Shown here piece by piece: positions 36,357-54,013 of a stretch of DNA of 64,000 bases. The notes beneath the pieces were generated by a model that searched no databases, was not told where the DNA came from, and worked only from the letters and a program-made list of their open reading frames with translations. Origin of the DNA: a virus. Lineage: Duplodnaviria; Heunggongvirae; Uroviricota; Caudoviricetes. The stretch is taken from positions 75,064 to 139,063 of IMG/VR virus record IMGVR_UViG_3300006226_001702, one strand, 5' to 3'. Numbering within the stretch: position 1 is the first letter of the stretch; each line of letters begins with the position of its first letter. Position numbers and translations under genes: made by a program.

Positions 36357-37661
36357 TTAGTCACTATATTTTGATTGTTCCGGCCTAACATTATTGTGAA
36401 AATAGATATTTGACTTATTTCCTTCTGGATGAATTATTCGTTTGTTGTCCCAATCTTCAAGCACTTTTCTACATTCGTCAATCCAAAACTTAGTTGTACG
36501 AACTGGAACATTTTGGCCAACTACTGAACCAAAAGAATGGAAATTATGTAAATAGTTTAAGTCATGTGGAAGTCCCATAAAGTGCATATATTCTCTAAAA
36601 GTGAAACATCTATCTTCTATTGGATGTAATGCGCTCCAAGTGTTACCATGATAAACAGTTGGCATTTTCTCATTAGCAACTGAAAAGAATGACCTATCAT
36701 AATAGCCCATTCCAATTGCTTTTTTACCCAAACAATAATCATAATGTGCTTTTAATTTTTCATCTTTGTGGAACTTGTAAAACTCATCAGCTAATCCATT
36801 TAGAATAATAAAGCTTTTTAATCTATATCTTCCAACTGTATCTCGCCAATTTTTTCCAAACTTTTTGCTAATAAAAGCATACTCTTGATTTCCATCTAAA
36901 GTGTAACATTCAAACTCTTTAGTATTCTGAGTTGCGTTTGTTGGTATTCTTGAAAGGTATTCCGTAATAGTGCCAACTTTTTTGCTTTCAAATCCAATTA
37001 CAGGTGGTGGAATATCATCTTTTAACCACTTCCAAAATATCACATAAGTTCGTGGTCTATATTGAATGTTGTCATGAAGATAAGTATCTGTTTTAACATA
37101 AGTTACAGAATAACCAGAAACTTCAGCAATTTCATTTAAGTAATCTCTAACAACTTTTCCCTTTGGTGTATAAAGAGCAGGAGCATTTTCAAATAAGTAC
37201 ACTTTTGGTCTAACTGATTGTAAAACAAATTTAGTGAGAAACTTGAGGTTGTTGTTTTTCATTGAGTCATCTTTGCCATGGTCAGCTGTATTTGCTGCTG
37301 ATAAACCACTACAAACTGGCACTGAAACTATTAAGTCAACTGACTTTAAAGTTGTATCTTCTGGATTAAAATTGGCATTGCTATATTCATTATCATTTGT
37401 TATAGCAACTGGTCCATTTATATCATCAAACATTCCTCTGTTAAATTGTACATAAGGAGGAAGTTTTTTCTTTTTCTTGAGGTATTCTAAAAAATGTCTT
37501 TCGTTTCCAATGCCTCGTAAAGAGCCATCTTTTCCAAAAATTTCTTTTTCTAATCCAGGATATGATAATATCCAATTTGCCTGTTTACCAAATGATTGTT
37601 CGCCTGCGAAATAAGCACCACCAGTTAGCGGTTGAATTGCGGCCCATGTTAAATTACTCAT
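36357..37661 (-). CDS. Divergent DNA cytosine-C5 methyltransferase-like protein
   Basis: Motif IV PVCSGLS, VI FENAP, VIII IQYRPRTYVIF, IX FTFREYMHFMGLP, X GQNVP; atypical motif I (QPLTGG). Confidence 0.75.
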   Translation of the reverse strand: MSNLTWAAIQPLTGGAYFAGEQSFGKQANWILSYPGLEKEIFGKDGSLRGIGNERHFLEYLKKKKKLPPYVQFNRGMFDDINGPVAITNDNEYSNANFNPEDTTLKSVDLIVSVPVCSGLSAANTADHGKDDSMKNNNLKFLTKFVLQSVRPKVYLFENAPALYTPKGKVVRDYLNEIAEVSGYSVTYVKTDTYLHDNIQYRPRTYVIFWKWLKDDIPPPVIGFESKKVGTITEYLSRIPTNATQNTKEFECYTLDGNQEYAFISKKFGKNWRDTVGRYRLKSFIILNGLADEFYKFHKDEKLKAHYDYCLGKKAIGMGYYDRSFFSVANEKMPTVYHGNTWSALHPIEDRCFTFREYMHFMGLPHDLNYLHNFHSFGSVVGQNVPVRTTKFWIDECRKVLEDWDNKRIIHPEGNKSNIYFHNNVRPEQSKYSD

Positions 37662-40506: not shown

Positions 40507-40923
40507 ATGGAAGGCCGCAATTTTATCGAGTGGACTGATAAAGAATTCTCAATAAATAACGACATTCTAGATGCACAGCATAAAGGATTCGTTAAAATGA
40601 TTAATGATATCTTTAATAACATAAACTTAATTGACAGAAGTAAAGAGTTTGAATATTTTGAATGTGTTAAAGAAGACATCTCTAATTATCTAAAAATCCA
40701 CTTTTACACAGAAGAAAAGATAATGGGGAAACTCAATATTTGTAAGGAACTAGTTAAGGCTCATATTAAAGAACATGATAAGTTTATTGAAAACTTTGAT
40801 ATGATAATTAAGAACTTCAAAAAAGAGGACCTAAATCTTGATGAATTAGTTTTTTTCTTAATAGACTGGATTGCTGATCACGTCCAGACTATTGATAAAA
40901 AAACTTTTAAGGAAGTAAACTAA
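40507..40923 (+). CDS. Bacteriohemerythrin
   Basis: Complete di-iron ligand set: QH, HFYTEE (HxxxE), HIKEH (HxxxH), HVQTID (HxxxxD); N-terminal IEW..EFS. Confidence 0.9.
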   Translation: MEGRNFIEWTDKEFSINNDILDAQHKGFVKMINDIFNNINLIDRSKEFEYFECVKEDISNYLKIHFYTEEKIMGKLNICKELVKAHIKEHDKFIENFDMIIKNFKKEDLNLDELVFFLIDWIADHVQTIDKKTFKEVN

Positions 40924-41507
40924 TGAATAGAAATATCATTATCGCTGATATAGACGACACACTGATAAAATCATCTCCAGACGATATTGGTATTTGGAAA
41001 ATGAAAGATGGAGAAGAAACTCGACTAACGACTGAGGAGTTTGCTGAAGACCCAGATAAGGGAAAGCCTGGAATAACTTATGATTATTGGGAGTTTGAAG
41101 ACCCAAAAAGAGTTAGAGACAGTATTATGAATGGCACACCTCTTATTAGAAACTTAGAGATTATTGATGATTATCTTGATAATGGATATGATTTCGTTTT
41201 CCTAACAGCCCGTGGTTGTGAAGATGTTATCAAAGATGTAATGGCTGACTTTATGAAATATCGTTCAAAAGATGGTGAGTTAAAAGAATTGGGTGATAAG
41301 TTCAAAAGAAGTCTTTCTTATGCTGTTAATGATGAAAAATATTGTGAGATATTTGATGGCTTAAAAGATTTTGAAAGAAAAGCCAGCGTTATTAAACATA
41401 TTGCTAGAATGTATGATGACGTTATTTTCATTGATGATGATGATAGAAACTTAGAAGCTGTTAAAAATCTAGACTTACAAAACGTTTCAGTAGTTAAAGC
41501 GACTTAA
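40923..41507 (+). CDS. HAD-superfamily phosphatase
   Basis: Motif I DIDDT, motif II LTARG, motif IV FIDDD..N. Confidence 0.8.
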   Translation: MNRNIIIADIDDTLIKSSPDDIGIWKMKDGEETRLTTEEFAEDPDKGKPGITYDYWEFEDPKRVRDSIMNGTPLIRNLEIIDDYLDNGYDFVFLTARGCEDVIKDVMADFMKYRSKDGELKELGDKFKRSLSYAVNDEKYCEIFDGLKDFERKASVIKHIARMYDDVIFIDDDDRNLEAVKNLDLQNVSVVKAT

Positions 41508-42184
41508 ATCCTTTTTCCCATTCTAACAAAAGCCTCTGTGTTACCAAATCTTTTTAAGTCTCTATTATAAAGAACATCAAAGTTATCTTCAAACCATTTT
41601 AATAGCTCCCTAGATTCTTCTTCTTTTTTCCTACAGTGAATTTCGATAGCAAGATACTTAATGTATTTTGGAAGCTTAGTCCAGTCAATAGTGTATTCAC
41701 CACCTTCTGTGTCCATCTTCAAAATAGTTGGTTTGTATTTTTTGAGCTCATCATAAAATGACAAAGTTGGAACAGTTATCTTATCTCTTCCTCTCACTGG
41801 AATAATTGAATGAGTTCCCATGCATGGTTTAGTACCAGCTTTTCTTCTAGTTATGTAAAAATCAATTGTGCCAACTTCTCCAGCCATTGCGACATTATTT
41901 AGAATTGCATTACCCAATTTCTGTTTAGACAACACTTGAAAGTTTTCAGGTTCTGGCTCGTAAGAGATAACTTGTTTTGCTCCATATTTTAGAGCATTAT
42001 ATGCAAAGACGCCAATATTAGCACCAACGTCCATAACGACTTGGTCTTCACAAACTTTGAAAATTTCTTTATATTCATACATCTCTTTTAAGACGTCTAA
42101 ATCTCCAGTGTCAGGTCTATAAAATAATCCAGTTTTAGCATCTTCTAAAATAACGAGATTATTATTTCCAAATGTAAATGACAT
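41504..42184 (-). CDS. FkbM-family SAM-dependent methyltransferase
   Basis: MDVGANIGVF, ISYEPEPENF, ILKMDTEGGEY. Confidence 0.85.
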   Translation of the reverse strand: MSFTFGNNNLVILEDAKTGLFYRPDTGDLDVLKEMYEYKEIFKVCEDQVVMDVGANIGVFAYNALKYGAKQVISYEPEPENFQVLSKQKLGNAILNNVAMAGEVGTIDFYITRRKAGTKPCMGTHSIIPVRGRDKITVPTLSFYDELKKYKPTILKMDTEGGEYTIDWTKLPKYIKYLAIEIHCRKKEEESRELLKWFEDNFDVLYNRDLKRFGNTEAFVRMGKRI

Positions 42185-43083
42185 TAAAGTCCTCCAAATT
42201 TAAATCCATTCAATTGTTTGTATTCATCAGGATATTCTTTTATGTACCATTCTGGATATTTGACAGCATTTTTTGCACTAATTTTTGCTCCCATGACTCC
42301 ATTCAAATCCCAATGAATAATGTTTGGATATTTTTTAATTAGATATCTATAAACATCTTTATGCTTTTTGGACTGTTCTGCCTTTTTAGTTTGCTCTACA
42401 TTTAAGTCCCATGCTTGTGATTTAATTTTCTTGTCATAAACTGCTTCTAAAAAGTTTACTGTCTTTCCAGAAAAACCACTCTTAATAAATCTACAAACGA
42501 GTTCAACATCTTCTCCAACACCTAATGGACAATCTTTATCAAAGTTTATGTTGTGCTGTTTCATTAGTTCAATGTTTATTCCATAACAACCAGCAAATAA
42601 AGTATGTGAACTTTTAGATAATGGAGTTGTTCCTTTATAAGATTTGTTTGGACCAAATAATTTTAATCCAATTTGACTAGAAGGTATTTTAACAAACCAA
42701 TCTTTTTCAACATCAATATATTGTTCAATAGTGGCAAAGAAAGAAGCAATATCGACTGGGATGTATTTTGAATCTAAATCCTTAGTTTGGAACTTGATAT
42801 AATCATCATCAATGAACCAAGCAAATTTAGTTCCCAATTCCTGCTGATGCTTAATCATATCATATCTTTTTTCAGCAATATTTCTCTTTGGACCTTGTAC
42901 AATTATGTTACCAGTTTTTTCGTATTCTTCTTTATCATCAGTTACATCAATATAAATGTAAGCACTTAATTTTGATTTCTTTAAATGCTCAAAAGTATGT
43001 CCAACTGGCCTCTGATGACTGGGCACACAAATTGGATATTTTGGTGTGCCTTTTATAATGTAATCTAAATGAGTTTTCATCAT
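42184..43083 (-). CDS. GT-A glycosyltransferase, TET-associated (TAGT/GREB1-like) type
   Basis: YPICVPSHQR, NIAEKRYDM, AWFIDDD (DxD), GEDVE. Confidence 0.7.
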   Translation of the reverse strand: MMKTHLDYIIKGTPKYPICVPSHQRPVGHTFEHLKKSKLSAYIYIDVTDDKEEYEKTGNIIVQGPKRNIAEKRYDMIKHQQELGTKFAWFIDDDYIKFQTKDLDSKYIPVDIASFFATIEQYIDVEKDWFVKIPSSQIGLKLFGPNKSYKGTTPLSKSSHTLFAGCYGINIELMKQHNINFDKDCPLGVGEDVELVCRFIKSGFSGKTVNFLEAVYDKKIKSQAWDLNVEQTKKAEQSKKHKDVYRYLIKKYPNIIHWDLNGVMGAKISAKNAVKYPEWYIKEYPDEYKQLNGFKFGGL

Positions 43084-43085
43084 AT

Positions 43086-44390
43086 TTAATTTATGAAACT
43101 AGAATGCTGCACTTTGTTAGTTTCAAGCTCCATCAATATTTTGTTAGTTTCTGCTATCTTACAATTTATTGGGCAATATCTAGTATTTAATTCCTCCCCT
43201 TGTTTATAACGATAATCACTATTCCAAATATCAATTAAACGATTATCTGCTGTTATTTTTCCATAATAGCCACTCTTTGATCCATTATTGTAATCATTTA
43301 ATTTGAAACAACAAGTTAGGACTACACCTTCTGAAGTGATAGTTGGATATAATGCATGTCCATAACATTTCTTAAAAGGTATTCCAGTTTTTTCATATTT
43401 AATCAATTCTGCAAACTTATATGAGATAGTATAAACTTTGAAGGTGTCAGTTGAATAAGCAGACACATTAGATAATAGACTAAATATCTCCTTATCCCAA
43501 AATATGAAGGCAAGATTTAATCTATCTTCTGGGAATAAAACTATTGGTTTAATTTGTATATAATCGACACCAATTTTTCTAAAAGTATTTATTGCAGGAA
43601 GTACATCGAGATAATTATATGGAGTTAAAAGATAAGACACCCCAATAGTTATATCTGAATTATTTTCTCTTTTACATTGGACTGCTCTTTCAATAGCAGC
43701 AACAGTTTCATCAAAGTCAGCTACATTTCCATGCATCTCTTTATAAACTGTATCACTACCAGCATCAACTGAAAATCTAACCCATTGACAATAATCAATA
43801 ACAGGTTTTGGGTCCTTCAATAATTGACCATTAGTTATTAAGCCAACATCAAAATGTTGATTTAATGCTCTAATAATCTCTTGCCATTTTGGATGGCATA
43901 ATGGTTCACCACCTCCAGATAAGTTAACACCCTTAACCCCAAGTGTCTTCATATCTTCAACTAAGTTTGGCAATAATTTCATGTCAAAATTATGTTTCTG
44001 TTGTGGTGATAATTCTTTAACTGAAAAGGTACAACCTGGGCAAGCATGATTACAGAAAGTAGAAGGATGCATTTCAACAGTAACTGGTCCAACTTCTTTT
44101 CGAGTTTCTGGACAGAGATAATCTCTTAATTTGTCAAAATGAGATAATATCTTATTTGAAGTAAAGATAGAAGATTTTTGATTTGCAAATCTATTGTAGA
44201 ATTCCTCTAAGTTTTTCTGTTCTTCATCTAACATAATAGTTTTGACTTTAATAACAGTTTGTGCAGGTAACATTTCGGTGTTGTGAATAAACATATTATA
44301 GTCACTCAATGTGAGTCCTATCTGATTTGCAAAATCGTCTTTAGACAATTTTAATTGATTTCTTAATTTTTCTAAAACTTCTGTTCTCAT
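43086..44390 (-). CDS. XRE-type HTH fused to a radical SAM enzyme with SPASM/twitch-like tail
   Basis: N-terminal LEKLRNQLKLSKDDFANQIGL HTH; CNHACPGC (CxxxCxxC); SGGGEP; LITNG; C-terminal KCY...TCC...CPINC. Confidence 0.85.
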   Translation of the reverse strand: MRTEVLEKLRNQLKLSKDDFANQIGLTLSDYNMFIHNTEMLPAQTVIKVKTIMLDEEQKNLEEFYNRFANQKSSIFTSNKILSHFDKLRDYLCPETRKEVGPVTVEMHPSTFCNHACPGCTFSVKELSPQQKHNFDMKLLPNLVEDMKTLGVKGVNLSGGGEPLCHPKWQEIIRALNQHFDVGLITNGQLLKDPKPVIDYCQWVRFSVDAGSDTVYKEMHGNVADFDETVAAIERAVQCKRENNSDITIGVSYLLTPYNYLDVLPAINTFRKIGVDYIQIKPIVLFPEDRLNLAFIFWDKEIFSLLSNVSAYSTDTFKVYTISYKFAELIKYEKTGIPFKKCYGHALYPTITSEGVVLTCCFKLNDYNNGSKSGYYGKITADNRLIDIWNSDYRYKQGEELNTRYCPINCKIAETNKILMELETNKVQHSSFIN

Positions 44391-45361
44391 AATTGACCAA
44401 ATTTCTCCTTGAAACTTTTTGGTGTTGCATTCTTGATTAGATTAACCCATTCATAACCGTCGGATTTTGATTTCATTGAATCTCTAGCATAAAAAGTTTC
44501 ATTCTCTTCTAATATGTCCTGTAAAAAGTTATCCAATGAATCTGTTCTCCATCTATATTGAATTGGTCTCAATGATGATAAGCCTCGTCTAATAACGATA
44601 TCCGCCATATTGACTTTTCTCATTGCCATTACATTTTCACTTCCCCATTTCTTGTAAAGATTAAAACCTAACATACAAGTTTTATCTAAACCAGTAGAAA
44701 AGAATGCTCCCTTTTTAACTCGAGCATCTTGTGAAGTAGCTTTTTGAGCAGCATATTCAATATAAGTCATGGGTCTAATTCCCTGCTCTAATAATTGTAA
44801 GAAGTAATCATAATCTTCCCACATCATAATATCAGTAGTGTGATAAATAAGTTTACCACATTTTTCTCTCATTTTTTTCAAGTCCCAATAATGAATTGAT
44901 ATTGGACTCATGTGACAATATTTTGCTGGACGATGAATTCTATTCTTAATAAAATTGCTTCCTGCCATACCTCCATAAATGTGTTCGATTTCTGGAAGCT
45001 CTGGCCATCTAACATAAGGTACAGTTAGATTACGAATAAAATCTTCTTTACTGTAAGGGCCAAACTTACAAAGTCGTGATATGTTTTCATCAAACATCCA
45101 AACTTTATTATAGCCGTGAGCCTCTGCCCAATCCATAACATAATTCTTTAATGATGACATATTAGACTGTGTATCTTTATATGGCATTCCGTTATGTTCA
45201 ACAGCAAAATTTTTCGGTTTCCAATCTGGAAATTCGTTTTTATCTACAAATGCTACGACATCTTGTTTGTCATTAGAATGAAAAACATTCTTATATTTAA
45301 TGTCATCATATTTACAAAACGGTCCCCTTCCAGCCAAAATTGTTACTAAAGTTTTACTCAT
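44387..45361 (-). CDS. Second GT-A glycosyltransferase, TAGT-like
   Basis: NYVMDWAEAHGYNKVWMFDENI and WEDYDYFLQLL. Confidence 0.65.
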   Translation of the reverse strand: MSKTLVTILAGRGPFCKYDDIKYKNVFHSNDKQDVVAFVDKNEFPDWKPKNFAVEHNGMPYKDTQSNMSSLKNYVMDWAEAHGYNKVWMFDENISRLCKFGPYSKEDFIRNLTVPYVRWPELPEIEHIYGGMAGSNFIKNRIHRPAKYCHMSPISIHYWDLKKMREKCGKLIYHTTDIMMWEDYDYFLQLLEQGIRPMTYIEYAAQKATSQDARVKKGAFFSTGLDKTCMLGFNLYKKWGSENVMAMRKVNMADIVIRRGLSSLRPIQYRWRTDSLDNFLQDILEENETFYARDSMKSKSDGYEWVNLIKNATPKSFKEKFGQL

Positions 45362-45756
45362 GTCCTTTCCTTGATATTTTTAAGTACTCCATATCCTGAA
45401 GTTACTAGTATTGGTATGTTGTTTTTAATATGTATTAGAATGCTTTCAAATTCATCTACAATTGGTGGATAAGCATTTTTATTTCCAAGGCTCACCGCAA
45501 TTCTTGCACTCTCTAAAATCTTTTGCATATCCACACAAGCATTTAAAGTTTTTTCTACTGCTTCTGTTAGTTGTGTTACTCTTCTATTAGCTAATTCTCT
45601 ATTTACTCCAATTCCAAACATTGCGTTATAGATACTTTTTTCTTCATCATCTTCACCAACTAAATCATCTAAATCTATTGGTTGATAGTCCATAGCATCT
45701 TCTACATCTGAGAGAAGTTGGTCGATTTCTTTTTGACTCAAAGTTCCATCACTCAT
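45358..45756 (-). CDS. Protein with N-terminal FliM/FliY-like CheY-binding peptide
   Basis: MSDGTLSQKEIDQLL; class II motif 5 nt upstream. Confidence 0.7.
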   Translation of the reverse strand: MSDGTLSQKEIDQLLSDVEDAMDYQPIDLDDLVGEDDEEKSIYNAMFGIGVNRELANRRVTQLTEAVEKTLNACVDMQKILESARIAVSLGNKNAYPPIVDEFESILIHIKNNIPILVTSGYGVLKNIKERT

Positions 45757-45761
45757 ATTCT

Positions 45762-45770
45762 TATATTAAC
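45762..45770 (-). promoter_or_regulatory. Class II motif GTTAATATA
   Basis: GTTAATATA-AGAAT-ATG(45756). Confidence 0.65.
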
Positions 45771-46083
45771 TTTTACAAAACTGGCAATTACAATTAGTCT
45801 TACCAGAGAAAATGCAAACATCGTCATTTTCAGTTTTATCTTCCTCTGGAAAATTAAAGTCAGCAAAATCATCGAATTCTATTCCTGGAAACTCTAATTT
45901 TTTCGGAGGAAGATTTAACTTCACATTAACTTGTTTTACTACTTTCGGTTGTGGGGATTCAATAACTGTTGGTTTATATGGCCTGTTATATGTATGTCTT
46001 TTATATAAAATTGGAATAATAATCGTCAAGAGCCAGACGCCAGTCATTGATATGATAATTGAAAGTAGAATTTCTTCAATCAT
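45766..46083 (-). CDS. Small single-pass membrane protein
   Basis: N-terminal TM helix; C-terminal CxxC. Confidence 0.65.
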   Translation of the reverse strand: MIEEILLSIIISMTGVWLLTIIIPILYKRHTYNRPYKPTVIESPQPKVVKQVNVKLNLPPKKLEFPGIEFDDFADFNFPEEDKTENDDVCIFSGKTNCNCQFCKS

Positions 46084-46241
46084 TTTCTTGTATAAGTTTC
46101 CTCTTCTCCATATATCATTTTATTATCTTCATACAATTTAATTAAAATGTTGTATAATTCTTCTTGTTCTTTTTTATCTAATTCTACCTTCCCAACTGGA
46201 GTCTTAAATTCGTGAATCCAATATTCTATTCTGTCAGTCAT
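46080..46241 (-). CDS. 53-aa hypothetical protein (not in track)
   Basis: MTDRIEYWIHEFKTPVG...; SD AAGGAG; ATGA overlap with the next gene. Confidence 0.6.
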   Translation of the reverse strand: MTDRIEYWIHEFKTPVGKVELDKKEQEELYNILIKLYEDNKMIYGEEETYTRK

Positions 46242-46252
46242 AATTATGCTCC

Positions 46253-46441
46253 TTAATCAAATAATTCTGATCTTCCAAGTAGTTTTTCTACTGTCTTTAG
46301 TGCTTTAGTGAGTCTTAAATCAAATATGTTTAATCTCCTATTTACTACACTTACATCATTTTCTACTCTTGCTATTGTTGTTTCTAACTCCTTTAAGTAC
46401 ACAAACCAATCATTGTTTGTTTTTACTTGTTCTATTGTCAT
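46253..46441 (-). CDS. Small coiled-coil hypothetical protein
   Basis: 62-aa ORF; SD AAGGA. Confidence 0.6.
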   Translation of the reverse strand: MTIEQVKTNNDWFVYLKELETTIARVENDVSVVNRRLNIFDLRLTKALKTVEKLLGRSELFD

Positions 46442-47360
46442 TAATGCATTCCTTTATAGTTTTTCTAACTGCATCATCAGATGATCTATCAACTATAAAA
46501 CCTAATTTCTGTAATTTATCGACATTAAAACTGAATGTGTTAATGTCGCCCACATACCCGGTGGGGTTTGCTCCGTATTGAATGTTATTGCAATTAAATT
46601 CTTTAGCTACCCATTCGGCCATATCCTTCAATTTAGTTTTCGATTTATCGTATGGCGCTACATTAAATACATTAACCTTCTTAGCAGAATTAAACCACAA
46701 AAAGATTATTGCATCAATTAAATCTTTAACATGTATGTACGGTTTGCATTGAGACCCATCTCCCAACACTTCTAATTTTTTTGGATTTTCTTTTAACTGT
46801 CTAATAAAATTCCAAAGAGCTCCATGAGTCATTCTTGGGCCAATAACATTTGGGAATCTTATTATTAAAGTATGCATTCCATAGTTTTCAGCAAAGGAAG
46901 ATATAAAAGCTTCAGAAGCTAATTTTGCTGCCCCATAATGTGATAATGGTAAAAGTGGCCCACTAGATTCTAACAAACTCATATTTCCATGGTCACCATA
47001 AACTGTTGACGATGATGAAAATATGAAGTTCTTTATTTTATTTACACGGGCTATTTCAAGCATATAAAATGTTGAAAGAAAAGTTTCATTCAAATCAAAA
47101 GAGCTATCCTCTATTGACTTAAAAGTATCAGCATTAGAAGCGATGTGAAAAATTGCATCCACTCCTTCAAATATTGAATCTGGAAGTGTTTTAATATCTT
47201 TTGCAATTAACTGAAACTTATCACTTTTAATATGTTTGATATTATTTTCAGTTCCTTTGGAGAAATTATCAATCCCAATAACTTCGTAATCTTGAGCTAA
47301 TAATGCGTCAACTAAATGACTACCAATAAAGCCAGCGGCACCCGTACAAATAACTTTCAA
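46410..47360 (-). CDS. NAD-dependent NDP-sugar epimerase (UDP-glucose 4-epimerase-like extended SDR)
   Basis: TGAAGFIGSHL, SSSSTVYG, YGAAK (YxxxK), RFPNVIGPR, LEVLGDGSQ; TTG start with GGAGG SD. Confidence 0.9.
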   Translation of the reverse strand: MKVICTGAAGFIGSHLVDALLAQDYEVIGIDNFSKGTENNIKHIKSDKFQLIAKDIKTLPDSIFEGVDAIFHIASNADTFKSIEDSSFDLNETFLSTFYMLEIARVNKIKNFIFSSSSTVYGDHGNMSLLESSGPLLPLSHYGAAKLASEAFISSFAENYGMHTLIIRFPNVIGPRMTHGALWNFIRQLKENPKKLEVLGDGSQCKPYIHVKDLIDAIIFLWFNSAKKVNVFNVAPYDKSKTKLKDMAEWVAKEFNCNNIQYGANPTGYVGDINTFSFNVDKLQKLGFIVDRSSDDAVRKTIKECINDNRTSKNKQ

Positions 47361-47370
47361 AAGTTACCTC

Positions 47371-48033
47371 CTATAATTCTAATAATTTATTTAAAGTTTC
47401 TTCTGCGCTATTTCCAGGTTGAACAGTTTTCCAGACTTCATATTCACCACCATCTTTATGAACCATTGAAGCCATATCTTCATAAGCTTGTTTAACTCTA
47501 GTTTCAAAAGAGTCACCGGCTGTTTCAAACAAATCATTTACTCCAATAGAACGATTTCCCACTCTATCTGGAAAATAGTAAATGATATTTGGTGTTACAT
47601 CTGGATAAGGATTTTTGAAAAAGTTTATAACATGCATTACTTTTTCTTTTGAATGATACTTTAACATATCATCAATAATTTGCTTGCCATAAAATTGATA
47701 AGCAATGCACGAATAAGTGTGTCTATCACATATAACAGTTTTACCTGCTTTCAAGTTCGGTCTAATTATTTTGGCAATGCATTCAGCTTTATCCAACATA
47801 AATGCATGCATATTTCCATAAGAAGATAATTCCCATCGTTTATCTTTACAAAGAGAACGAAGCGTTGTTGCTAATGGACCCCAATCACCACCAGGTTGTC
47901 TAGTCATAATTGTGTCAATTCCCTCTGAGTTTAGTTTATCGGCCAAAAGTTTTGCAACACTAGTTTTTCCAGTAGCGTCAAAACCTTCAAACACGATAAA
48001 TTTATTCTTGAATTTGTTCATTAAAAGCTCCAT
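47371..48033 (-). CDS. tmk: Thymidylate kinase-like dNMP kinase
   Basis: FIVFEGFDATGKT, TRQPGG, VICDRH. Confidence 0.85.
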   Translation of the reverse strand: MELLMNKFKNKFIVFEGFDATGKTSVAKLLADKLNSEGIDTIMTRQPGGDWGPLATTLRSLCKDKRWELSSYGNMHAFMLDKAECIAKIIRPNLKAGKTVICDRHTYSCIAYQFYGKQIIDDMLKYHSKEKVMHVINFFKNPYPDVTPNIIYYFPDRVGNRSIGVNDLFETAGDSFETRVKQAYEDMASMVHKDGGEYEVWKTVQPGNSAEETLNKLLEL

Positions 48034-48253
48034 AGCTTAATTTAGTCATAATACTGTCACCTTGAATCGCTACAAAATCAGCAGCTCTTAACTCTAAAAT
48101 TATTTTAGATAACTCAATAAAGTTTATATTTCCACCAGCATCAAGTTTAGTGTGAATTAAATGTTCGAGACAATTTAACACACCATCTCTAGTGTTATCA
48201 GAAACTAAATGAATTTCTTTTTCGCTCAATAACATGCGCTTTCCAGATGACAT
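48002..48253 (-). CDS. Hypothetical protein
   Basis: 83-aa ORF in operon. Confidence 0.6.
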   Translation of the reverse strand: MSSGKRMLLSEKEIHLVSDNTRDGVLNCLEHLIHTKLDAGGNINFIELSKIILELRAADFVAIQGDSIMTKLSYGAFNEQIQE

Positions 48254-48262
48254 TATTATTTC

Positions 48263-48904
48263 CTATTTTAGATTATCGTCATAAATATCGTTATATGCCG
48301 TTTCAGTCATGTTCAAATTAGTTATTTTAGTTTGATAAATGTCGTCAACATCTTTTTCTTCTGTAACTTTTGCATATAAATTAAGAGCACCTTTAAATTC
48401 TGCTTTTGGTGAGAAATTAATGTCTTCAGCAACTTGTGTACAACCAAAATTTATCTCATCAGCAAGCTCACAAATAGTAGCTTGAAAACCTTTCATGTTA
48501 TCTATTGCGGCCCAAGTTTCGTCAATGTCATTTACTCTAACATCTTTGTTTTTAACTTTAATCTCAATACCATGAGCTGCCATTGCTTCAAAGTATGGCT
48601 CTAACAAATCTGGATTACCAGTTGCATACAAGTCATCAATTATTTGAAGTAACTTCTTAAAAGTTGGACTCACTCTGTCCTTAAATTTTTCATTTGGGTC
48701 GAGCTCTAATGGGTTACCCATCCAGCCTCTTTTGTGGTAGTAAGAATAATCCTTACAACGAATCATGACAGGCTTCTCGATTTTTTGCATCTTTGCCATA
48801 TCTGCTGCCACCATGTTCATATGCTTTGAAGCAGTTTTCTTTTCAGTTAAAAGACCATAAGCTTCCGATAGCAATTCTTTTGGTGTCGTTTGTTTTTCTG
48901 ACAT
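48263..48904 (-). CDS. Hypothetical protein
   Basis: 213-aa ORF; SD AAGGAG; class II motif at 48924-48932. Confidence 0.7.
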   Translation of the reverse strand: MSEKQTTPKELLSEAYGLLTEKKTASKHMNMVAADMAKMQKIEKPVMIRCKDYSYYHKRGWMGNPLELDPNEKFKDRVSPTFKKLLQIIDDLYATGNPDLLEPYFEAMAAHGIEIKVKNKDVRVNDIDETWAAIDNMKGFQATICELADEINFGCTQVAEDINFSPKAEFKGALNLYAKVTEEKDVDDIYQTKITNLNMTETAYNDIYDDNLK

Positions 48905-48931
48905 ATTTTATCTCCTTGAATGTTATATTAA

Positions 48932-49786
48932 CTATTGTATAAATCCAGAATTTGGATTTTCATACATCTTTTTGACTTCTGGTTGATTATGTAGATATTC
49001 AAAATACTCTTTAATGATTTTATCAAGTAATTCAAAGTCTCTTTCATAAATGTGAAGTGAGCCTGCATTCCAATAAATGTTTCCACGTTCTGGATCCATG
49101 CTACTAAACATTCTAATATCTTTTAGAAAATATTCATAAACAAATCCATGCCATGGTAAGTCACCACAATGAAGTCCTCTAATAACATCATTACTTCTCA
49201 TTGTAACAATATAATCAAATCTATTTTTTCTAATAAAATGTTGTGTTGTTATAGTACAAGTAAAATCAGATTTAGCATTTATTCCATCATTCCATTCCCA
49301 TTGCATTTGTGGACGACCATAATAGATTATTGACTGTCTTCCATCTGGTTTTTCAATAAGTTGTTCTAAAGCATATTTATATTGAGATTTTTCAACTTTA
49401 TTTCTTGGTATATAAATATGTCTTTTATTATCAGTAAGTCCATCATAATAGATCCTTCCATTTTCTGGACTAAAAACACACCAACCATAATTTGAATTAA
49501 CTCGGCCATCATCAGTACAAATGCGGGACCAAATTTTATTATCTTCAATTCCCTTATGTCCCTTAATACATCTGTCTTGACTCATGTACCATTTGTGTTC
49601 ATTTTCTATATATTTATGTTGAGCTTTTCTGGATTCACCAAGATGAAGTTTAGTATCAGTTGCATCAAAAACAAGATTTGCATTAATGATTTCAGCTGTT
49701 CCTGCAACTAAATCATTTTTCTTAATTTTTTCCTGTAATGGAATTAAAACATTTTCAATGAGATAAATAGCGTTTTTTGTGTACAT
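48932..49786 (-). CDS. dCMP hydroxymethylase-like enzyme (T4 gp42 branch of the thymidylate synthase superfamily)
   Basis: NSNYGW..F, RQSIIYYGRPQMQ, DFTCT, MRSNDV..G....DLPW and IYWNAGSLHIY mirror T4 gp42 (DFMCT, MRSNDVVFGFRNDYAW, IIWNVGSLHVY, as recalled). Confidence 0.8.
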   Translation of the reverse strand: MYTKNAIYLIENVLIPLQEKIKKNDLVAGTAEIINANLVFDATDTKLHLGESRKAQHKYIENEHKWYMSQDRCIKGHKGIEDNKIWSRICTDDGRVNSNYGWCVFSPENGRIYYDGLTDNKRHIYIPRNKVEKSQYKYALEQLIEKPDGRQSIIYYGRPQMQWEWNDGINAKSDFTCTITTQHFIRKNRFDYIVTMRSNDVIRGLHCGDLPWHGFVYEYFLKDIRMFSSMDPERGNIYWNAGSLHIYERDFELLDKIIKEYFEYLHNQPEVKKMYENPNSGFIQ

Positions 49787-49807
49787 ATTCCTTTCCTTAA
49801 GTTTATT

Positions 49808-50356
49808 TTATAAAAACTTATTTGCGTGTAAATGATGTTTAACTTCATCAAATACTTGTTCTATTGTCTTTCCAGTTATATTGATTAATGTTTTGTGTTT
49901 AATGTTACTCTTTTCATAAAACTCTTTGAAACGATTTATCTCATCAGTTTTCTTTTCAAGTTCAACTGAAAAAGATTTTCCATCATCTCTGCTAATTAAA
50001 TCTTGTGGGTCAGCAACGAATACATATAATTTTATATTATTTAAGACTCGCCTGCCAAATCTTTCTTCAATTTCATAAACATAGTCACCAATGTAATTTC
50101 TATAAATTGAACTATAAACTGTTTCACCACCATGTGCTCTATCCATTGCAAGATTCAAATTATTATAAGTGGCGAACTTAATTAGATTAAACATTTCTGT
50201 GTAATGACGTTCTGATTTCTCTTTAACATTATCTCCCTTAATAGATGAATAATGCAAAACATGAATCGTTTGTCCATTTTCTTCCAGATATTTTTTGATT
50301 AAATCTAACTGTGTTGATTTTCCAACCCTATCAGGTCCTTCTATCAAAATAACCAT
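49808..50356 (-). CDS. Second nucleoside-monophosphate kinase (P-loop)
   Basis: ILIEGPDRVGKST, MDRAH..E.VY. Confidence 0.8.
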   Translation of the reverse strand: MVILIEGPDRVGKSTQLDLIKKYLEENGQTIHVLHYSSIKGDNVKEKSERHYTEMFNLIKFATYNNLNLAMDRAHGGETVYSSIYRNYIGDYVYEIEERFGRRVLNNIKLYVFVADPQDLISRDDGKSFSVELEKKTDEINRFKEFYEKSNIKHKTLINITGKTIEQVFDEVKHHLHANKFL

Positions 50357-50387
50357 TATTTTCCCTCTTCTTATTTTATAAATTAAC

Positions 50388-51056
50388 TTAGATTTCTTCG
50401 CCAGTTAGATTCTTATATTCAAGTGTATAACGCTCTTTCTCTTCTTCACTTAAAGTTTCAGGTTCATTCCTCAATTTGTTAAATAAAAAATGAATTCTTG
50501 CCCCAATTTCTGCGTTATAATTAAGTCCCTCTTCTGATAGTTTTAAGTTAACTGGTTCTTGATCTTTTTTACCAAATAAATTGATGTTTAACTTAAGTTT
50601 ACCATTATTTTCAAATAACTTATCATAATTGATACTATTTTCTATCATTACTTGTGGCCACATCATATTCTCTTTAATAAAAAGACTAATGAATAATGAA
50701 ACTTTTTCTGATATTGAAGCGTCCTTAAGTGACTCCTTAAAAGCTTCTCTATGAGATTTATTGGGCCATTGAAATGATTTTTTCATTTTACAATGCTTAC
50801 TGTTTTTAACGTAATTATCAATCCATTGTTTGCATCTATATTGTTCACCAGCGGGAACAGCTCTGTTTAATTCACAAATGTAATTACTTCTGTGATAAAA
50901 TAAACCATCAGTAGCATGAATTGTCTTTTTGACTTTACAATTTTTTAATCCTTGCTTTTTTGCATAATCAAATAAATAAGCTTTTAATTCGTTAAATCTT
51001 TTAAATTGATCTGCATCTTTTTCTACTCGTTCTTCATCTAAACTTTTATGTATCAT
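50388..51056 (-). CDS. Hypothetical protein
   Basis: 222-aa ORF. Confidence 0.65.
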   Translation of the reverse strand: MIHKSLDEERVEKDADQFKRFNELKAYLFDYAKKQGLKNCKVKKTIHATDGLFYHRSNYICELNRAVPAGEQYRCKQWIDNYVKNSKHCKMKKSFQWPNKSHREAFKESLKDASISEKVSLFISLFIKENMMWPQVMIENSINYDKLFENNGKLKLNINLFGKKDQEPVNLKLSEEGLNYNAEIGARIHFLFNKLRNEPETLSEEEKERYTLEYKNLTGEEI

Positions 51057-51734
51057 TTAAACTCCTATTTCTAAAAAATGTTGGCCAACAGATGCATGAT
51101 TATATTTTAGTTTTTTAGTAAAGCAATATTGTGCAACTTTATCTTTTCCATTATTTTTAGTATCAAGAATAATAAGCTTGTGGTCTAACTTATATTTTCC
51201 TCTAATTTCTGTGATTAAATCATCTTGGTCATTCAATACTATAATTGAAGAAAATTGATGATTTATTATTTCCTGTAAAGCGAGCTGCCCATAATCTTTA
51301 TTTTTTAATAATCCATAAGTGCAGTTAAAATATTGATAAAATTGTCTGTTACCAGTAAAATCAGTTGGGACACCAGCCCAAATACAGAATGGTGGACGAA
51401 CTTGGTCAGGACGAAGCTTTAAAGTTTTTTGTACGTCTAATGAATTACGAGATAATACTCTATTGAAATTATCCCATTCCAACCAATGCTTTTCTTTTTC
51501 AATAACGCCGCCAGTAAAAACTATAAATACAGATAGAGTTCCATTTATTGCATTTAACCATTCTTGTTCTAAGTCTTGTTCTTTTATTTTCTCAACAATA
51601 TCATTATATAAAGTTGAATGATCATTCTTTTTTAATTCTTCATCATTTTCTCCAATGTCCAACTTTACTGCTGGTTGGCCATTACCTGGTCCAAATGGAA
51701 TTAAACCAAAATCTACTTTATTGATTTTTAACAT
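51057..51734 (-). CDS. Hypothetical protein, possibly a degenerate QueE/NrdG-like fold
   Basis: MLKINKV...GPGNGQPAV and IVFTGG; no CxxxCxxC. Confidence 0.5.
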   Translation of the reverse strand: MLKINKVDFGLIPFGPGNGQPAVKLDIGENDEELKKNDHSTLYNDIVEKIKEQDLEQEWLNAINGTLSVFIVFTGGVIEKEKHWLEWDNFNRVLSRNSLDVQKTLKLRPDQVRPPFCIWAGVPTDFTGNRQFYQYFNCTYGLLKNKDYGQLALQEIINHQFSSIIVLNDQDDLITEIRGKYKLDHKLIILDTKNNGKDKVAQYCFTKKLKYNHASVGQHFLEIGV

Positions 51735-52128
51735 TAAGTTTTTCCCTCATTTCTTTTTTGATATCTTCTTTATTTTCAATAAACATATCAACTCTTCTTC
51801 TCAATTCCTCAAATGCTTTTCTAAAAGTTACTGAACCTCGAGGTGCTTCTGTTGTAAAGAGCTCTGCTACTGCATATTCAGAATGATCCGTTTCATCATG
51901 ATAGTATAGCGTCATTCTATCATTTATGCCTGGACGAATTGCGCATCTTAATCCTTTGTCAATAGTATATTCCATAATATCATCCATCAAAGGATCCGTC
52001 TTAAACTCATGTAACATTCTTTGGTCATTTGGTCCAGGAGCTACTTCAACTTTTTTCTTGTAAAGAATAAAACCAAAAATGATAATTGCCAGCAGTTGTG
52101 CTGCTTGTAGTATAATAATCGTACTCAT
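51718..52128 (-). CDS. Single-pass membrane protein
   Basis: N-terminal TM followed by KKK; class II motif at 52134-52142. Confidence 0.65.
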   Translation of the reverse strand: MSTIIILQAAQLLAIIIFGFILYKKKVEVAPGPNDQRMLHEFKTDPLMDDIMEYTIDKGLRCAIRPGINDRMTLYYHDETDHSEYAVAELFTTEAPRGSVTFRKAFEELRRRVDMFIENKEDIKKEMREKLNVKNQ

Positions 52129-52132
52129 GTTC

Positions 52133-54013
52133 TTATATTAACCTCAAAAAATTTGTTTGTGCTTCATAATCTCCGCCCAAAGTTAGTTTCCATTCTTCAG
52201 GTGTGAGTGTGTTTTTTCTAATAAGTCCGTCAAGAACTTTCCCCTTTTGTTCTAAGTTCAACAACATTAAATTATCAATAGAATTATGATAACATAAGTT
52301 ATAATATCTAGTTTCCTCATCTTGTCCAATGCGATGAATTCTTCCTCTGAATTGCTCATAAGTTATGTATGCCCAAGTTCTCTCAAAGAAAACTGCTGCT
52401 TTACATTCAGTTAACGTAAAAGAAGAATTAGCAATATTTATTGATGCAAGAAGAATCTTATTTTTGCTTTTCTTAAAATCAGCAATTAATGGAAAACGAT
52501 CTTCCTTTGCGACATCAGCTGATATTACATGAAAATCAAATTTAAGATGCTGTTTCAAACATTCAAGCGTAATTGGATGATAATATGATATGATAATTTT
52601 GTTATCTTTTTCTACACACTCCTCTTCAATAATTGCATCCAATAATTTTAACTTTTCAAAATCTCTTTCAAAATTAAAGTTCTTAACATTTTGTTGTAAT
52701 ATTGGGTCGAACTTATCAAAGTTTGGCGTCTTTAATAAACACAATGGATTATCAATAGATAATTGTAAATATTGGAATGTATTAGTTAAATTAGCAACCA
52801 ATCCGGCATTATTTGAAAAGTTTCTTTTCTTAACATCATTAATAACTTCATATGTAAATGCCTCATAAATTTCTCTATGTGGTTTAGACATGTTCGTATA
52901 AATAGTTGGCACATCATAAGCTGTTGGAAGATTTAATAAACTTTTTTCTCTTTTAACAGCATAATTTTTATATAAGTTGTCTTGCAATTCAGTCCACTTT
53001 TGATAATTCCAAGTGTCTTTATTTATTCCATAACGGGACCATTTATTTCCCAATGTGCAATATTCAGTTAACCAATTTGTGTAATCTAATCCATTTACTA
53101 GAGCATTATTTAGCACTTTTAATAACAGATACATCTTCTCTTCTTTGTCAGAAGGAGTTGCACTAAATTGATAACGATATTCAAAATATTGCAAGTTCAT
53201 GTCAATAAACTTTGACCTCAAAGAACTTGGACTTCCTAAAAAGTGGCACTCATCTAAAAATAATAATCCTTTATATTTTCCAAACCATTCTTTTAATGGA
53301 AGAGGTGATTTTCTATATTTAACTTTTTTAGTTCTTTTATTTATAGCCTTATCATAAGCATCCCCAATAGACCTAAATGAATCATATCCACAAATTATTA
53401 TATCATAATCTTTATCAAAAACTAATCTATCTTTTAATGATGATATTGATTTAATAACGAGCGTTTTTTCTTCATCATAATCTTTAATAAACTTTTTTAA
53501 TTCATGTGGCAAGTTTAAAACACCAATGGGAGAAGTTAAAATAATTGCTTTGTAACATTCACCAGCTAATCTCAAATGTGATAACAGAGCAGCAAGCACG
53601 TAACTTTTTCCTAATCCAGTTGCATGCGCAAATAAAAATCTGTTTTGATTTAAGCCTCGAACTATATCAATTTCTTGAAAACTTCTAATATCTTTTTCAA
53701 CTTGATATGGTTCACATAATAAAAGTTCTTGATTAAACTTGCGATATTCTGAACGCTTATTTATAACTTTTAATTCATCTATATTGTCAAAATATTTAAT
53801 TATTTCTCTTTTGTCATATTCATTTAAGTCAATGTGGTAAGGCTCTAATTCTTTGAAAACTTCGTTAAACTTCCCCACACCAATTTGCCAAATCTTTTTA
53901 GTTGGTTCAAATCTAGCGCCTAATAATTTTAACGTTTCAATTTGCTCACTAAATTGATTTCCTGAGGGTTTAATGTTTAATAGTTTTTCATCATCATAAC
54001 TTAACTGTATCAT
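52133..54013 (-). CDS. SNF2-like SF2 helicase/ATPase
   Basis: ATGLGKS, LDECH, FSATP, QFRGRIHRIGQ. Confidence 0.85.
   Translation of the reverse strand: MIQLSYDDEKLLNIKPSGNQFSEQIETLKLLGARFEPTKKIWQIGVGKFNEVFKELEPYHIDLNEYDKREIIKYFDNIDELKVINKRSEYRKFNQELLLCEPYQVEKDIRSFQEIDIVRGLNQNRFLFAHATGLGKSYVLAALLSHLRLAGECYKAIILTSPIGVLNLPHELKKFIKDYDEEKTLVIKSISSLKDRLVFDKDYDIIICGYDSFRSIGDAYDKAINKRTKKVKYRKSPLPLKEWFGKYKGLLFLDECHFLGSPSSLRSKFIDMNLQYFEYRYQFSATPSDKEEKMYLLLKVLNNALVNGLDYTNWLTEYCTLGNKWSRYGINKDTWNYQKWTELQDNLYKNYAVKREKSLLNLPTAYDVPTIYTNMSKPHREIYEAFTYEVINDVKKRNFSNNAGLVANLTNTFQYLQLSIDNPLCLLKTPNFDKFDPILQQNVKNFNFERDFEKLKLLDAIIEEECVEKDNKIIISYYHPITLECLKQHLKFDFHVISADVAKEDRFPLIADFKKSKNKILLASINIANSSFTLTECKAAVFFERTWAYITYEQFRGRIHRIGQDEETRYYNLCYHNSIDNLMLLNLEQKGKVLDGLIRKNTLTPEEWKLTLGGDYEAQTNFLRLI

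Follow-up and report, generated by a model that had tools for sequence, protein, structure and literature searches.

An XRE-type helix-turn-helix fused to a radical SAM enzyme in a predicted hydroxymethylcytosine glycosylation cassette of a large uncultivated phage

In the TET-associated and T-even DNA glycosyltransferase cassettes, supply of a hydroxymethyl-pyrimidine is followed by stepwise TAGT-type sugar transfer on DNA (PMC8256090; bioRxiv 10.1101/2023.12.21.572611). In the literature that we examined, the sugar modifications of phage DNA are built by glycosyltransferases alone, and a radical SAM enzyme is mentioned neither in these two papers nor in a study of 5-hydroxycytosine glycosylation (PMC13326640). 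Installation of a DNA modification by a radical SAM enzyme is reported there only for gp53 of Pseudomonas phage M6, which acts on an amino-acid adduct of thymine as an isomerase of N-alpha-glycinylthymidine on DNA (PMC8989533). The literature, of which our coverage was incomplete, yielded no description of DNA-glycosylation cassettes with a radical SAM enzyme or of XRE-radical SAM fusions. The gene described here, P0001, comes from a large uncultivated phage and lies in a stretch of 64,000 nucleotides (the window). An initial annotation of the window had described its product as an XRE-type helix-turn-helix (HTH) joined to a radical SAM/SPASM enzyme with a Cys-rich tail and encoded between two glycosyltransferase genes, and had proposed that the HTH tethers radical chemistry to DNA or, alternatively, autoregulates the operon.

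A helix-turn-helix domain joined to a radical SAM core

P0001 is an intact ORF encoding 434 aa (43086 to 44390, on the minus strand, as are all features given below). Its product begins with an XRE/Cro-C1-type HTH (residues 3-48; 44247 to 44384), which is followed by a flexible linker and then by a radical SAM core with a Cys-bearing C-terminal domain. When the whole protein was searched with Pfam, HTH_19 matched residues 4-48 with 30.8 bits (cut-off 30.2), Radical_SAM (PF04055) matched residues 109-251 with 57.7 bits (cut-off 29.5), and SPASM matched residues 348-410 with a marginal 22.8 bits (cut-off 21.5). The AF2 model of the full protein had a pLDDT of 85 and a pTM of 0.84.

The peptide quoted for the HTH in the initial annotation, LEKLRNQLKLSKDDFANQIGLTLSDY, corresponds to residues 6-31. 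Scanned alone, the N-terminus matched HTH_19 with 34.8 bits (cut-off 30.2), and 11 of 20 family N-termini matched at E<=1. In a reciprocal search, a profile of the N-termini was run against 1.8 billion proteins and recovered only family members and tandem XRE-HTH proteins, the latter matching HTH_3 at E about 1e-56. When the N-terminal sequence was compared with those of solved structures, only chance-level matches resulted: lambda repressor at E 1, the C-terminal region of a Nudix protein at E 0.005, and lethal-factor repeats. Helices of the HTH lie at residues 3-13, 17-23 and 28-34 and from residue 43 onward. Folded alone (residues 1-78), the domain gave an AF2 model with a pLDDT of 85. Its top 50 Foldseek matches were all XRE domains, as were nearly all of its VIA matches, including all of the top ones. 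They comprise HigA2, Aca2, MqsA, SinR and the 434 and P22 c2 repressors, with an RMSD of about 2.1-2.5 A over 52-58 residues and Z up to 6.6; such modest scores are expected because the domain has only 50 residues. By profile and by fold, the N-terminus of P0001 is confirmed as an XRE/Cro-C1 five-helix fold joined to a radical SAM core, as the initial annotation had claimed, and the profile match whose absence it had named as a refutation is present. The invariant Y31 was considered as a sugar- or base-stacking residue and set aside, as it aligns with a buried hydrophobic position of helix 3 in the tandem XRE repeats.

Residues 49-79 (44154 to 44246) comprise a conserved long helix, spanning residues 43-68 in the model and bearing the invariant M53, E57 and N60, and a low-confidence linker. 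In the full-length model the pLDDT drops to 53 at residues 71-80 and below 50 at 75-77, and that of the HTH is equal whether the domain is folded alone or within the full protein, which fits a tethered module. Divergence of the N-terminal domain only moderately outpaces that of the core, so the domain is under selection. However, its most conserved residues (M53, E56, E57, N60 and Y64) are on the long helix into the core and off the recognition helix. The net charge of the HTH ranges from +3 to -6 across the family and is mostly negative, making the domain acidic to neutral rather than basic, and the recognition-helix positions equivalent to base-reading residues vary even among relatives that are 66-72% identical. 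These two properties would be indirect signs, either unfavourable or neutral, with respect to DNA binding. A complex prediction for the HTH domain with both glycosyltransferases scored 0.00, a value that says nothing either way.

The radical SAM partial TIM-barrel core covers residues 100-335 (43386 to 44093). The sequence CNHACPGC (44031 to 44054) holds its CX3CX2C motif, C113-x3-C117-x2-C120. Neither C113 nor C117 varies in any of the 87 aligned family members, C120 is absent solely in P0024, and the SAM-binding GGE motif (G159-G160-G161-E162) is invariant or nearly so in the family. [quoted passage not shown] The top VIA match of the core was BlsE (7VOB; Z 24.2, RMSD 3.8 A, 299 residues aligned), and DesII (8HZV/8HZY) matched with Z 24.0 over 348 aligned residues and a Foldseek E of 4e-14; SkfB, SuiB, MoaA and anSME ranked after these, and then viperins and BtrN (Z 16.4). 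The NCBIfam model for BlsE (TIGR04466) scored 20.7 bits against a cut-off of 400, and that for DesII (TIGR04426) scored 33 bits against a cut-off of 450, so far below it that the resemblance to DesII is one of fold only.

The C-terminal domain (residues 342-416; 43143 to 43367) has Cys residues at 342, 360, 361, 406 and 410. Only four of its Cys residues, C342, C360, C406 and C410, are invariant throughout the family, enough for one auxiliary cluster; C361 is invariant within the HTH clade, and C201, outside this domain, is present in 24 of the 25 HTH-clade members. The tail does not contain the seven-Cys SPASM motif, CX9-15GX4C ... CX2CX5CX3C ... C, and the fold matches to BtrN and MoaA support a twitch type. 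The domain fits a twitch-like or partial SPASM domain with one putative auxiliary cluster, not a full SPASM. Of the enzyme first annotated, the complete CxxxCxxC core stands, but the full SPASM assignment does not.

A conserved cassette around the fusion gene

P0001 is an internal gene of a translationally coupled run. Its ATG shares the sequence ATGA with the stop codon of the upstream glycosyltransferase gene, leaving no spacer upstream, and the downstream glycosyltransferase gene begins 2 nt past its own stop. The upstream gene (glycosyltransferase 1; 44387 to 45361, 324 aa), which has orthologues in loci L005 and L001, matches the TAGT family PF20691 with 38.1 bits; the downstream gene (glycosyltransferase 2; 42184 to 43083, 299 aa) matches it with 39.1 bits (cut-off 27.5 for both) and also matches phrog_842, 'beta-glucosyl-HMC-alpha-glucosyltransferase', at E 3e-14. 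These are the only PF20691 matches in the whole 198.6 kb record. The location between two glycosyltransferase genes is thus as first annotated, and both products are predicted TAGT DNA glycosyltransferases.

The cassette contains several further genes. An FkbM-family methyltransferase of 226 aa (41504 to 42184; PF05050 E 2.6e-13, TIGR01444 66.5 bits) is encoded beyond glycosyltransferase 2; its gene follows the radical SAM gene in L001 and glycosyltransferase 2 in L005. A GalE-like NAD-dependent sugar epimerase of 316 aa (46410 to 47360; PF01370 E 3.6e-45, best NCBIfam match galE) has the sequences SSSSTVYG and YGAAK and is without the dehydratase-type motif TDEVYG. Two proteins resemble kinases: a dNMP (thymidylate)-kinase-like protein (47371 to 48033; PF02223 E 3.7e-20) and a second thymidylate-kinase-like protein (49808 to 50356; PF02223 E 4.2e-10). 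Between them is a dCMP hydroxymethylase-like thymidylate-synthase homologue (48932 to 49786), whose best solved relative is T4 gp42 (E 2.6e-34). In its motif MRSND the ThyA-169 position is still Asp, whereas Asn is reported there for 5-hydroxy-dCMP synthases (PMC13326640). A setting of 5-hydroxymethylcytosine (hmC) glycosylation is supported at the sequence level, because the hydroxymethylase is closest to T4 gp42 and both genes flanking P0001 are of the TAGT family; the glycosyl-hmC DNA envisaged in the initial annotation agrees with this. Neither a 4,6-dehydratase nor an aminotransferase was found in the cassette with Pfam and NCBIfam, the one epimerase being the sole usual nucleotide-sugar tailoring partner. 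A Tet_JBP search of the virus record gave no match, though the control of this search was likewise silent, and no DNA near-identical to positions 41000-48000 was present in the phage collection. An anaerobic ribonucleotide reductase is encoded elsewhere in the window, in keeping with a host that lives where oxygen is scarce.

Distribution of the HTH-bearing form

The HTH is kept in about 25 homologues with 39-72% identity to P0001, a retention that the initial annotation had thought worth checking. It is carried by only 3 of the best 80 of 245 relatives, and a tblastn search of P0001 against phages returned distant HTH-less relatives only. The gene order of the cassette is conserved in relatives with 72% and 50% identity, and a TAGT gene is located within about two genes in 5 of 5 phage contexts of the HTH form (the window, L005/P0010, L001, L006/L007 and P0029). 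HTH-less relatives, of which there are hundreds, adjoin other glycosyltransferases and are far commoner in viral contigs than the HTH form. Among 113 immediate-neighbour proteins of 57 distinct HTH-less viral clusters there was at most one possible TAGT match; these neighbours are rich in GT2, GT1, GT47, RXYLT1 and methyltransferases. A custom TAGT profile had no matches in 78 HTH-less viral loci or in 83 further loci (80 of them genomic). The HTH-less sisters nested in the HTH clade (L008 and L009) are beside GT1, GT2 and methyltransferases, not TAGT. Among the phage loci compared, TAGT accompanies the HTH-bearing form, an association that a single recruitment event could account for.

The same fusion occurs in bacterial-looking contexts. 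In the Pirellulales MAG locus L091 it is accompanied by GcvP, DUF72, a nucleoside transporter and an Iso_dh-family (isocitrate/isopropylmalate) dehydrogenase, and in L090, also from a Pirellulales MAG, by an epimerase fragment, hexokinase and PIG-L. On an unassigned contig (L087) the neighbours are GT4 and LpxC, and in L089 there is just an epimerase and no TAGT gene within 12 kb. No DNA-modification genes were found in these four contexts. The bacterial-context fusions share conserved HTH residues with the phage forms, and in the tree some of them are basal to the phage sequences while others fall inside the phage group. This branching and the lack of DNA-modification genes indicate that the HTH-radical SAM fusion is older than its use by phages and that the HTH is not tied to DNA glycans. 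Since the domain is ancestral and common to the bacterial homologues, DNA docking in the phage, if real, would be a reuse of an older domain.

Proposed function and comparison with known systems

P0001 likely contributes a new step, radical-based tailoring of the sugar, to the hypermodification of glycosyl-hmC DNA. The explanation that we favour, with slightly less than even confidence in it as a whole, is that P0001 is a DNA-glycan-tailoring radical SAM enzyme that acts on a DNA-attached sugar and docks on DNA through its HTH. Its parts carry different weights: the substrate is quite probably a sugar, action on DNA and action on a nucleotide sugar are about evenly balanced, and the HTH as a DNA-docking module is a tentative assignment that we lean somewhat against. 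In outline, P0001 would be a working radical SAM enzyme with one twitch-type auxiliary Fe-S cluster and would tailor a glycan built on hmC DNA. The gp42-like enzyme would hydroxymethylate dCMP, and the two kinase-like proteins, together with host kinases, would phosphorylate the product for incorporation at replication. Glycosyltransferase 1 would transfer a hexose from a donor supplied via the GalE-like epimerase. P0001 would then remove a hydrogen from one carbon of the sugar, the auxiliary cluster serving to take up electrons, and leave the sugar oxidised, epimerised or deoxygenated, and glycosyltransferase 2 and the FkbM methyltransferase would complete the structure. The HTH, on its flexible linker, would provide non-specific docking on the polymer substrate. 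Tethering to DNA, as first proposed, is plausible but unproven: the HTH is real and retained, and the setting is one of predicted hmC glycosylation, but the fusion also occurs in the bacterial contexts described above, and the charge and variable recognition positions of the domain do not favour DNA binding.

A more specific form of this proposal seems to us possible but rather unlikely. P0001 would act directly on the hmC-attached sugar in duplex DNA, with the HTH in the glycan-filled major groove as the polymer-recognition element, and the product, made with the second glycosyltransferase and the methyltransferase, would be an undescribed oxidised, epimerised or deoxy, O-methylated di-saccharide base. 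By analogy, and with similarly low probability, the HTH would be the counterpart in major-groove reading of the leader-binding domain of peptide maturases.

P0001 could have the same pathway role before transfer, a possibility we regard as clearly less probable than the favoured explanation. It would remodel a soluble nucleotide sugar or other small sugar metabolite, TAGT would then transfer this to hmC, and the HTH would be a non-DNA structural, oligomerisation or partner-docking module of the enzyme clade. DesII and BlsE, the solved structures nearest in fold, work on soluble nucleotide or nucleoside sugars, which counts against the favoured explanation, and bacterial homologues of identical architecture are beside the hexokinase, epimerase fragment and PIG-L or the nucleoside transporter, with no DNA-modifying genes. 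The cassette, however, has none of the usual nucleotide-sugar tailoring partners apart from its epimerase, and phage TAGT cassettes use only the rare HTH-bearing clade. The acidic to neutral charge of the HTH, its variable recognition positions and the placement of its strongest conservation on the long helix are consistent with a non-DNA role. Fusion of an XRE-like fold to an enzyme does not have to mean DNA binding; the HTH also matched the folds of HppE, HEPD and MPnS, though weakly (Z 4.6-4.8). DesII too has an N-terminal helical domain (PMC11434129), but this aligns only to model residues 65-99, not to the HTH.

A bifunctional enzyme-repressor, in which the HTH recognises an operator and adjusts how strongly the gene or cassette is expressed, is improbable. 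XRE domains are mostly transcription factors, and enzyme-regulators such as BirA, NadR and the HTH-bearing methyltransferase M.SsoII are precedents. The genes of the bacterial homologues stand alone, each preceded by a spacer of 200-250 bp; one palindrome is present upstream in L087 (13 nt, 46-72 nt ahead of the start) and one in L089, but the upstream regions of L090 and L091 yielded no inverted repeat. The phage gene is inside a coupled run with no spacer ahead of it, and in a promoter/terminator scan of positions 41000-52500 promoter-like sites were no commoner than chance (55, versus 61 expected from shuffles). Recognition positions that differ among close relatives, in a domain that is not basic, also argue against an operator-binding role, and the autoregulation first suggested gained no positive support. 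Least probable, and very unlikely, is a non-sugar substrate, either the DNA base or, as for SPASM maturases, a peptide or protein, with the N-terminal domain as recognition element: SkfB, SuiB, CteB and anSME are strong fold matches (Z 18-22) and peptide maturases bear an N-terminal recognition domain, but that of P0001 is an all-helical XRE domain rather than a PqqD-like winged helix (no PqqD-type Pfam match in the whole protein or the family N-termini), its neighbours are glycosyltransferases, the whole family, with or without HTH, adjoins glycosyltransferases and methyltransferases, and the top fold matches are sugar enzymes.

On the favoured reading, DNA-glycan tailoring by P0001, several phage lineages share a radical SAM step within a glycosyl-hmC cassette, and a new class of tailored DNA glycans is predicted; these would bear on restriction and CRISPR evasion and on DNA-labelling enzymes. 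The natural versions of the family with and without the HTH offer a clean test of a DNA-binding fold as the substrate-recruiting element of a radical enzyme.

Among known enzymes, BlsE (cytosylglucuronate decarboxylase) recalls the setting of the cassette in that its sugar is joined to cytosine, but it has no HTH and works on a free nucleoside in antibiotic biosynthesis. DesII (TDP-4-amino-4,6-dideoxy-D-glucose deaminase) shares the radical SAM core and acts on a sugar, but it has a single cluster and no auxiliary-cluster Cys, and its substrate is a free TDP-sugar; equivalence of its N-terminal six-helix domain to the P0001 HTH was rejected, as the aligned part begins only at model residue 65. 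BtrN and other twitch-domain radical SAM dehydrogenases, whose substrate is a sugar or cyclitol, have the four-Cys auxiliary cluster predicted in P0001 and a shortened SPASM-like domain, but BtrN is about 250 aa long, has no N-terminal domain and shows only distant sequence similarity. HppE/HEPD-type enzymes and RodZ resemble P0001 in having an XRE-like helical domain N-terminal to a catalytic or other domain; their XRE-like folds have non-DNA roles and are joined to cupins or membrane anchors, and the fold scores are weak. Compared with the TET-associated and T-even cassettes, the hmC here would come from a gp42-like enzyme. M6 gp53 is a relative of spore photoproduct lyase, its substrate is an amino-acid adduct of hmU and not a sugar on hmC, and no HTH has been reported for it, but it is a phage enzyme whose radical SAM chemistry reshapes a group that a DNA pyrimidine already carries, a precedent for action on a DNA-bound hypermodification.

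The N-terminal domain and catalytic core of P0001

P0001, the 434-residue product of the ORF at 43086-44390 (minus strand), had been read as a helix-turn-helix (HTH) domain joined to a radical SAM/SPASM enzyme. In a Pfam search with the whole protein, HTH_19 matched residues 4-48 at 30.8 bits against a cut-off of 30.2. Because this single match was marginal, three further tests of the HTH were made. The isolated N-terminus scored 34.8 bits with HTH_19, which was also matched at E<=1 by 11 of 20 family N-termini. A profile built from these 20 N-termini was run against 1.8 billion representative proteins and found 35 at E<=0.001; those examined were either radical SAM family members or proteins with tandem XRE-type HTH repeats, the latter matching HTH_3 at an E of about 1e-56. 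The best non-family matches (P0052, P0053, P0054, P0056 and P0058) are proteins of 600-814 residues, with six to nine such repeats after a coiled-coil-like N-terminus. In the AF2 model of residues 1-78 (pLDDT 85), helices span 3-13, 17-23 and 28-34, and another runs on from 43. All of the best 50 Foldseek matches to this model were Cro/C1/XRE domains, with some 50 residues aligned at about 2.2 A, and an independent fold search of 48,161 chains again returned Cro/C1/XRE families, the highest Z being 6.6. Though modest, as fits a domain of 50 residues, these scores are mutually consistent, and the HTH is borne out by profile, reciprocal search and predicted fold. In the whole-protein model (pLDDT 85, pTM 0.84) the HTH reaches the same confidence as in the model of the N-terminus by itself, and is linked to the core by a low-confidence stretch at residues 69-79; in this model it looks like a tethered module.

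The Pfam Radical_SAM family matched residues 109-251 at 57.7 bits, and SPASM matched residues 348-410 at 22.8 bits against a cut-off of 21.5. Across 87 aligned family members the only invariant C-terminal cysteines are 342, 360, 406 and 410; in the HTH-bearing clade C361 is also invariant and C201 is present in 24 of 25 members. Four invariant cysteines are sufficient for one auxiliary cluster. The radical SAM core of the initial annotation stands; for its SPASM tail, the name twitch-like fits better than full SPASM domain.

The surrounding cassette

The virus record is 198.6 kb long and low in G+C, with the window at 75064-139063. The P0001 start codon shares ATGA with the stop of the upstream gene (44387-45361, minus strand); the downstream gene (42184-43083, minus strand) begins two bases past the P0001 stop, and its own stop overlaps the start of the next gene. 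The P0001 gene thus sits inside a run of translationally coupled genes. Both neighbors match the TET-associated glycosyltransferase family (TAGT, PF20691) above the Pfam cut-off, and the downstream one also matches a PHROG annotated as beta-glucosyl-HMC-alpha-glucosyltransferase. The run is extended on one side by an FkbM methyltransferase and on the other by a GalE-like epimerase, a thymidylate-kinase-like protein, a thymidylate-synthase homolog and a second kinase-like protein. The closest solved relative of the thymidylate-synthase homolog is the T4 gp42 dCMP hydroxymethylase (E 2.6e-34), and its MRSND motif has Asp at the position that is Asn in 5-hydroxy-dCMP synthases (PMC13326640). The gp42-like match and the retained Asp make hydroxymethylcytosine (hmC) the likelier modified base.

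Several other genes of the window are of note. Two genes upstream of P0001, a 132-residue protein (45358-45756, minus strand) begins MSDGTLSQKEIDQLLSD, a start like that of flagellar switch proteins, where the N-terminal peptide binds CheY. The 105-residue protein at 45766-46083 (minus strand) has a hydrophobic N-terminal segment and a Cys-rich end (CIFSGKTNCNCQFC), and no family match to it was found in Pfam or PHROG. A hemerythrin-domain protein (40507-40923) and a small protein that weakly matches DUF2608 (40923-41507), both on the plus strand, converge on the cassette. A C5 cytosine DNA methyltransferase (36357-37661, minus strand; PF00145, E 4e-12), also found in the relative at 72% identity, is encoded in a genome where hmC appears to stand in for C. 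A full-length xanthine/uracil permease (55569-56819, minus strand; PF00860, E 1e-95), an IMPDH/GMP-reductase-like gene (31880-32995) and an anaerobic ribonucleotide reductase (30007-31830) make up a nucleotide-supply set.

Distribution of the HTH form

The HTH is retained by homologs, a point on which the initial annotation had called for a check: among 5.8 billion proteins, about 25 full-length relatives at 41-72% identity have the N-terminus, and more distant relatives of 343-366 residues are without it. Relatives are encoded by 245 IMG/VR stretches (N-terminus in 3 of the 80 best) and number more than 512 in prokaryotic contigs, one genome per species (2 of the 80 best). A core-region tree groups the HTH-bearing sequences in a single clade with strong support (SH-aLRT 99-100). 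A few HTH-less members, L008, L009 and L092, belong to this clade too, and this HTH-less group is located beside GT1, GT2 and methyltransferases.

Gene order in the relative at 72% identity is identical to that in the window; the relative at 50% identity has two TAGT-like genes, then the radical SAM gene, then FkbM. The HTH form is also paired with a TAGT gene in two unrelated small-phage backgrounds, adjoining terminase and portal genes in L006/L007 and a ParB-like gene in the context of P0029. In L006 the TAGT gene directly follows the HTH-radical SAM gene, and two genes before the latter lies the gene of a 381-residue protein (L006:3634-4779) that weakly matches B12-binding and Radical_SAM; that cassette may thus hold a second radical enzyme. 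In the P0029 context a ParB_N-domain gene immediately follows the HTH-radical SAM gene, with TAGT fragments two genes upstream; ParB-dependent thymine dioxygenases are reported in phages in a 2026 paper (PMC13229309). For the HTH-less form, 57 distinct viral clusters have 113 immediate neighbors, in which GT2, GT1, GT47, RXYLT1 and methyltransferase domains abound; TAGT is absent among families having at least two matches, and a purpose-built TAGT profile had no match in the HTH-less loci searched, viral or genomic. In marine myophages, cassettes of radical SAM and glycosyltransferase genes are reported to lie in host-recognition regions and are tied to surface glycans (PMC7029224). Thus the phage HTH form accompanies DNA glycosyltransferases, whereas HTH-less forms accompany other glycosyltransferases.

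The fusion also occurs outside phages and TAGT settings. In L091, from a Pirellulales MAG, it is surrounded by glycine dehydrogenase, DUF72, a nucleoside transporter and an Iso_dh-family dehydrogenase; in L090, also Pirellulales, it precedes an epimerase fragment, hexokinase, PIG-L deacetylase and a flavoprotein; in L087 it has a GT4 enzyme on one side and LpxC on the other. L089 has no TAGT within 12 kb, and an epimerase adjoins. P0024 (L089:2490-3830), its HTH-clade member, has this epimerase and an ankyrin-repeat protein among its neighbors. Where CX3CX2C is expected, P0024 reads CQHACPYLPF, with loss of the third Cys, and it may be an inactive paralog. The proteins of these four loci and the phage HTH forms have E7, R10, Q12, F20, Y31, P42, M53, E57 and N60 in common, and in the tree L091 and L087 are at the base of the HTH clade, with L090 nested beside phage sequences. 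Given these common residues and tree positions, the HTH is older than the phage cassette; its link with TAGT could reflect as few as one recruitment event.

Substrate and role of the HTH

P0001 is probably a radical enzyme that tailors a sugar in the glycosyl-hmC pathway, given its fold neighbors, the glycosyltransferases and methyltransferases that accompany the family as a whole, and its conserved cassette position. Whether it acts on a DNA-bound sugar, as first proposed, rather than on a nucleotide sugar is evenly balanced. The donor side of the cassette consists of the epimerase only, and the P0001 gene sits among transferases; after it comes a methyltransferase, of a type that as a rule works once transfer is complete. 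There is also a known precedent for radical SAM chemistry on a DNA-bound adduct (PMC8989533). The nearest enzymes of solved structure, and the bacterial homologs too, point instead to a soluble substrate.

Docking of P0001 on DNA by the HTH is a tentative reading, on balance somewhat doubtful. The family HTH domains are acidic to neutral (net charge +3 to -6), and the base-reading positions of classical XRE repressors vary even between relatives 66-72% identical; conservation in the N-terminal domain peaks on the long helix running into the core. HppE, HEPD and MPnS, enzymes with no known DNA binding by their XRE-like domains, are among the fold matches of the HTH. Autoregulation of the operon, also proposed initially, is improbable, since scans of the cassette region and of sequence upstream of the stand-alone HTH-form genes gave no conspicuous promoter or operator.

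No account of an XRE-radical SAM fusion turned up in the literature searched, and radical SAM enzymes are not mentioned in the papers on phage TET/glycosyltransferase cassettes or on glycosylated 5-hydroxycytosine. If the sugar-tailoring reading of P0001 is true, phage pyrimidine hypermodification gains a radical sugar-tailoring step. Among solved proteins, those nearest to P0001 in a sequence-profile comparison are MoaA, DesII, BlsE, viperins, SkfB and BtrN. P0001 is outside the NCBIfam families of DesII (33 bits against a cut-off of 450) and BlsE (20.7 against 400). In fold it ranks closest to BlsE (Z 24.2) and DesII (Z 24.0), then SkfB, SuiB, MoaA, PqqE and anSME, then viperins and BtrN; the substrates of BlsE and DesII are sugars linked to a nucleotide or nucleobase.
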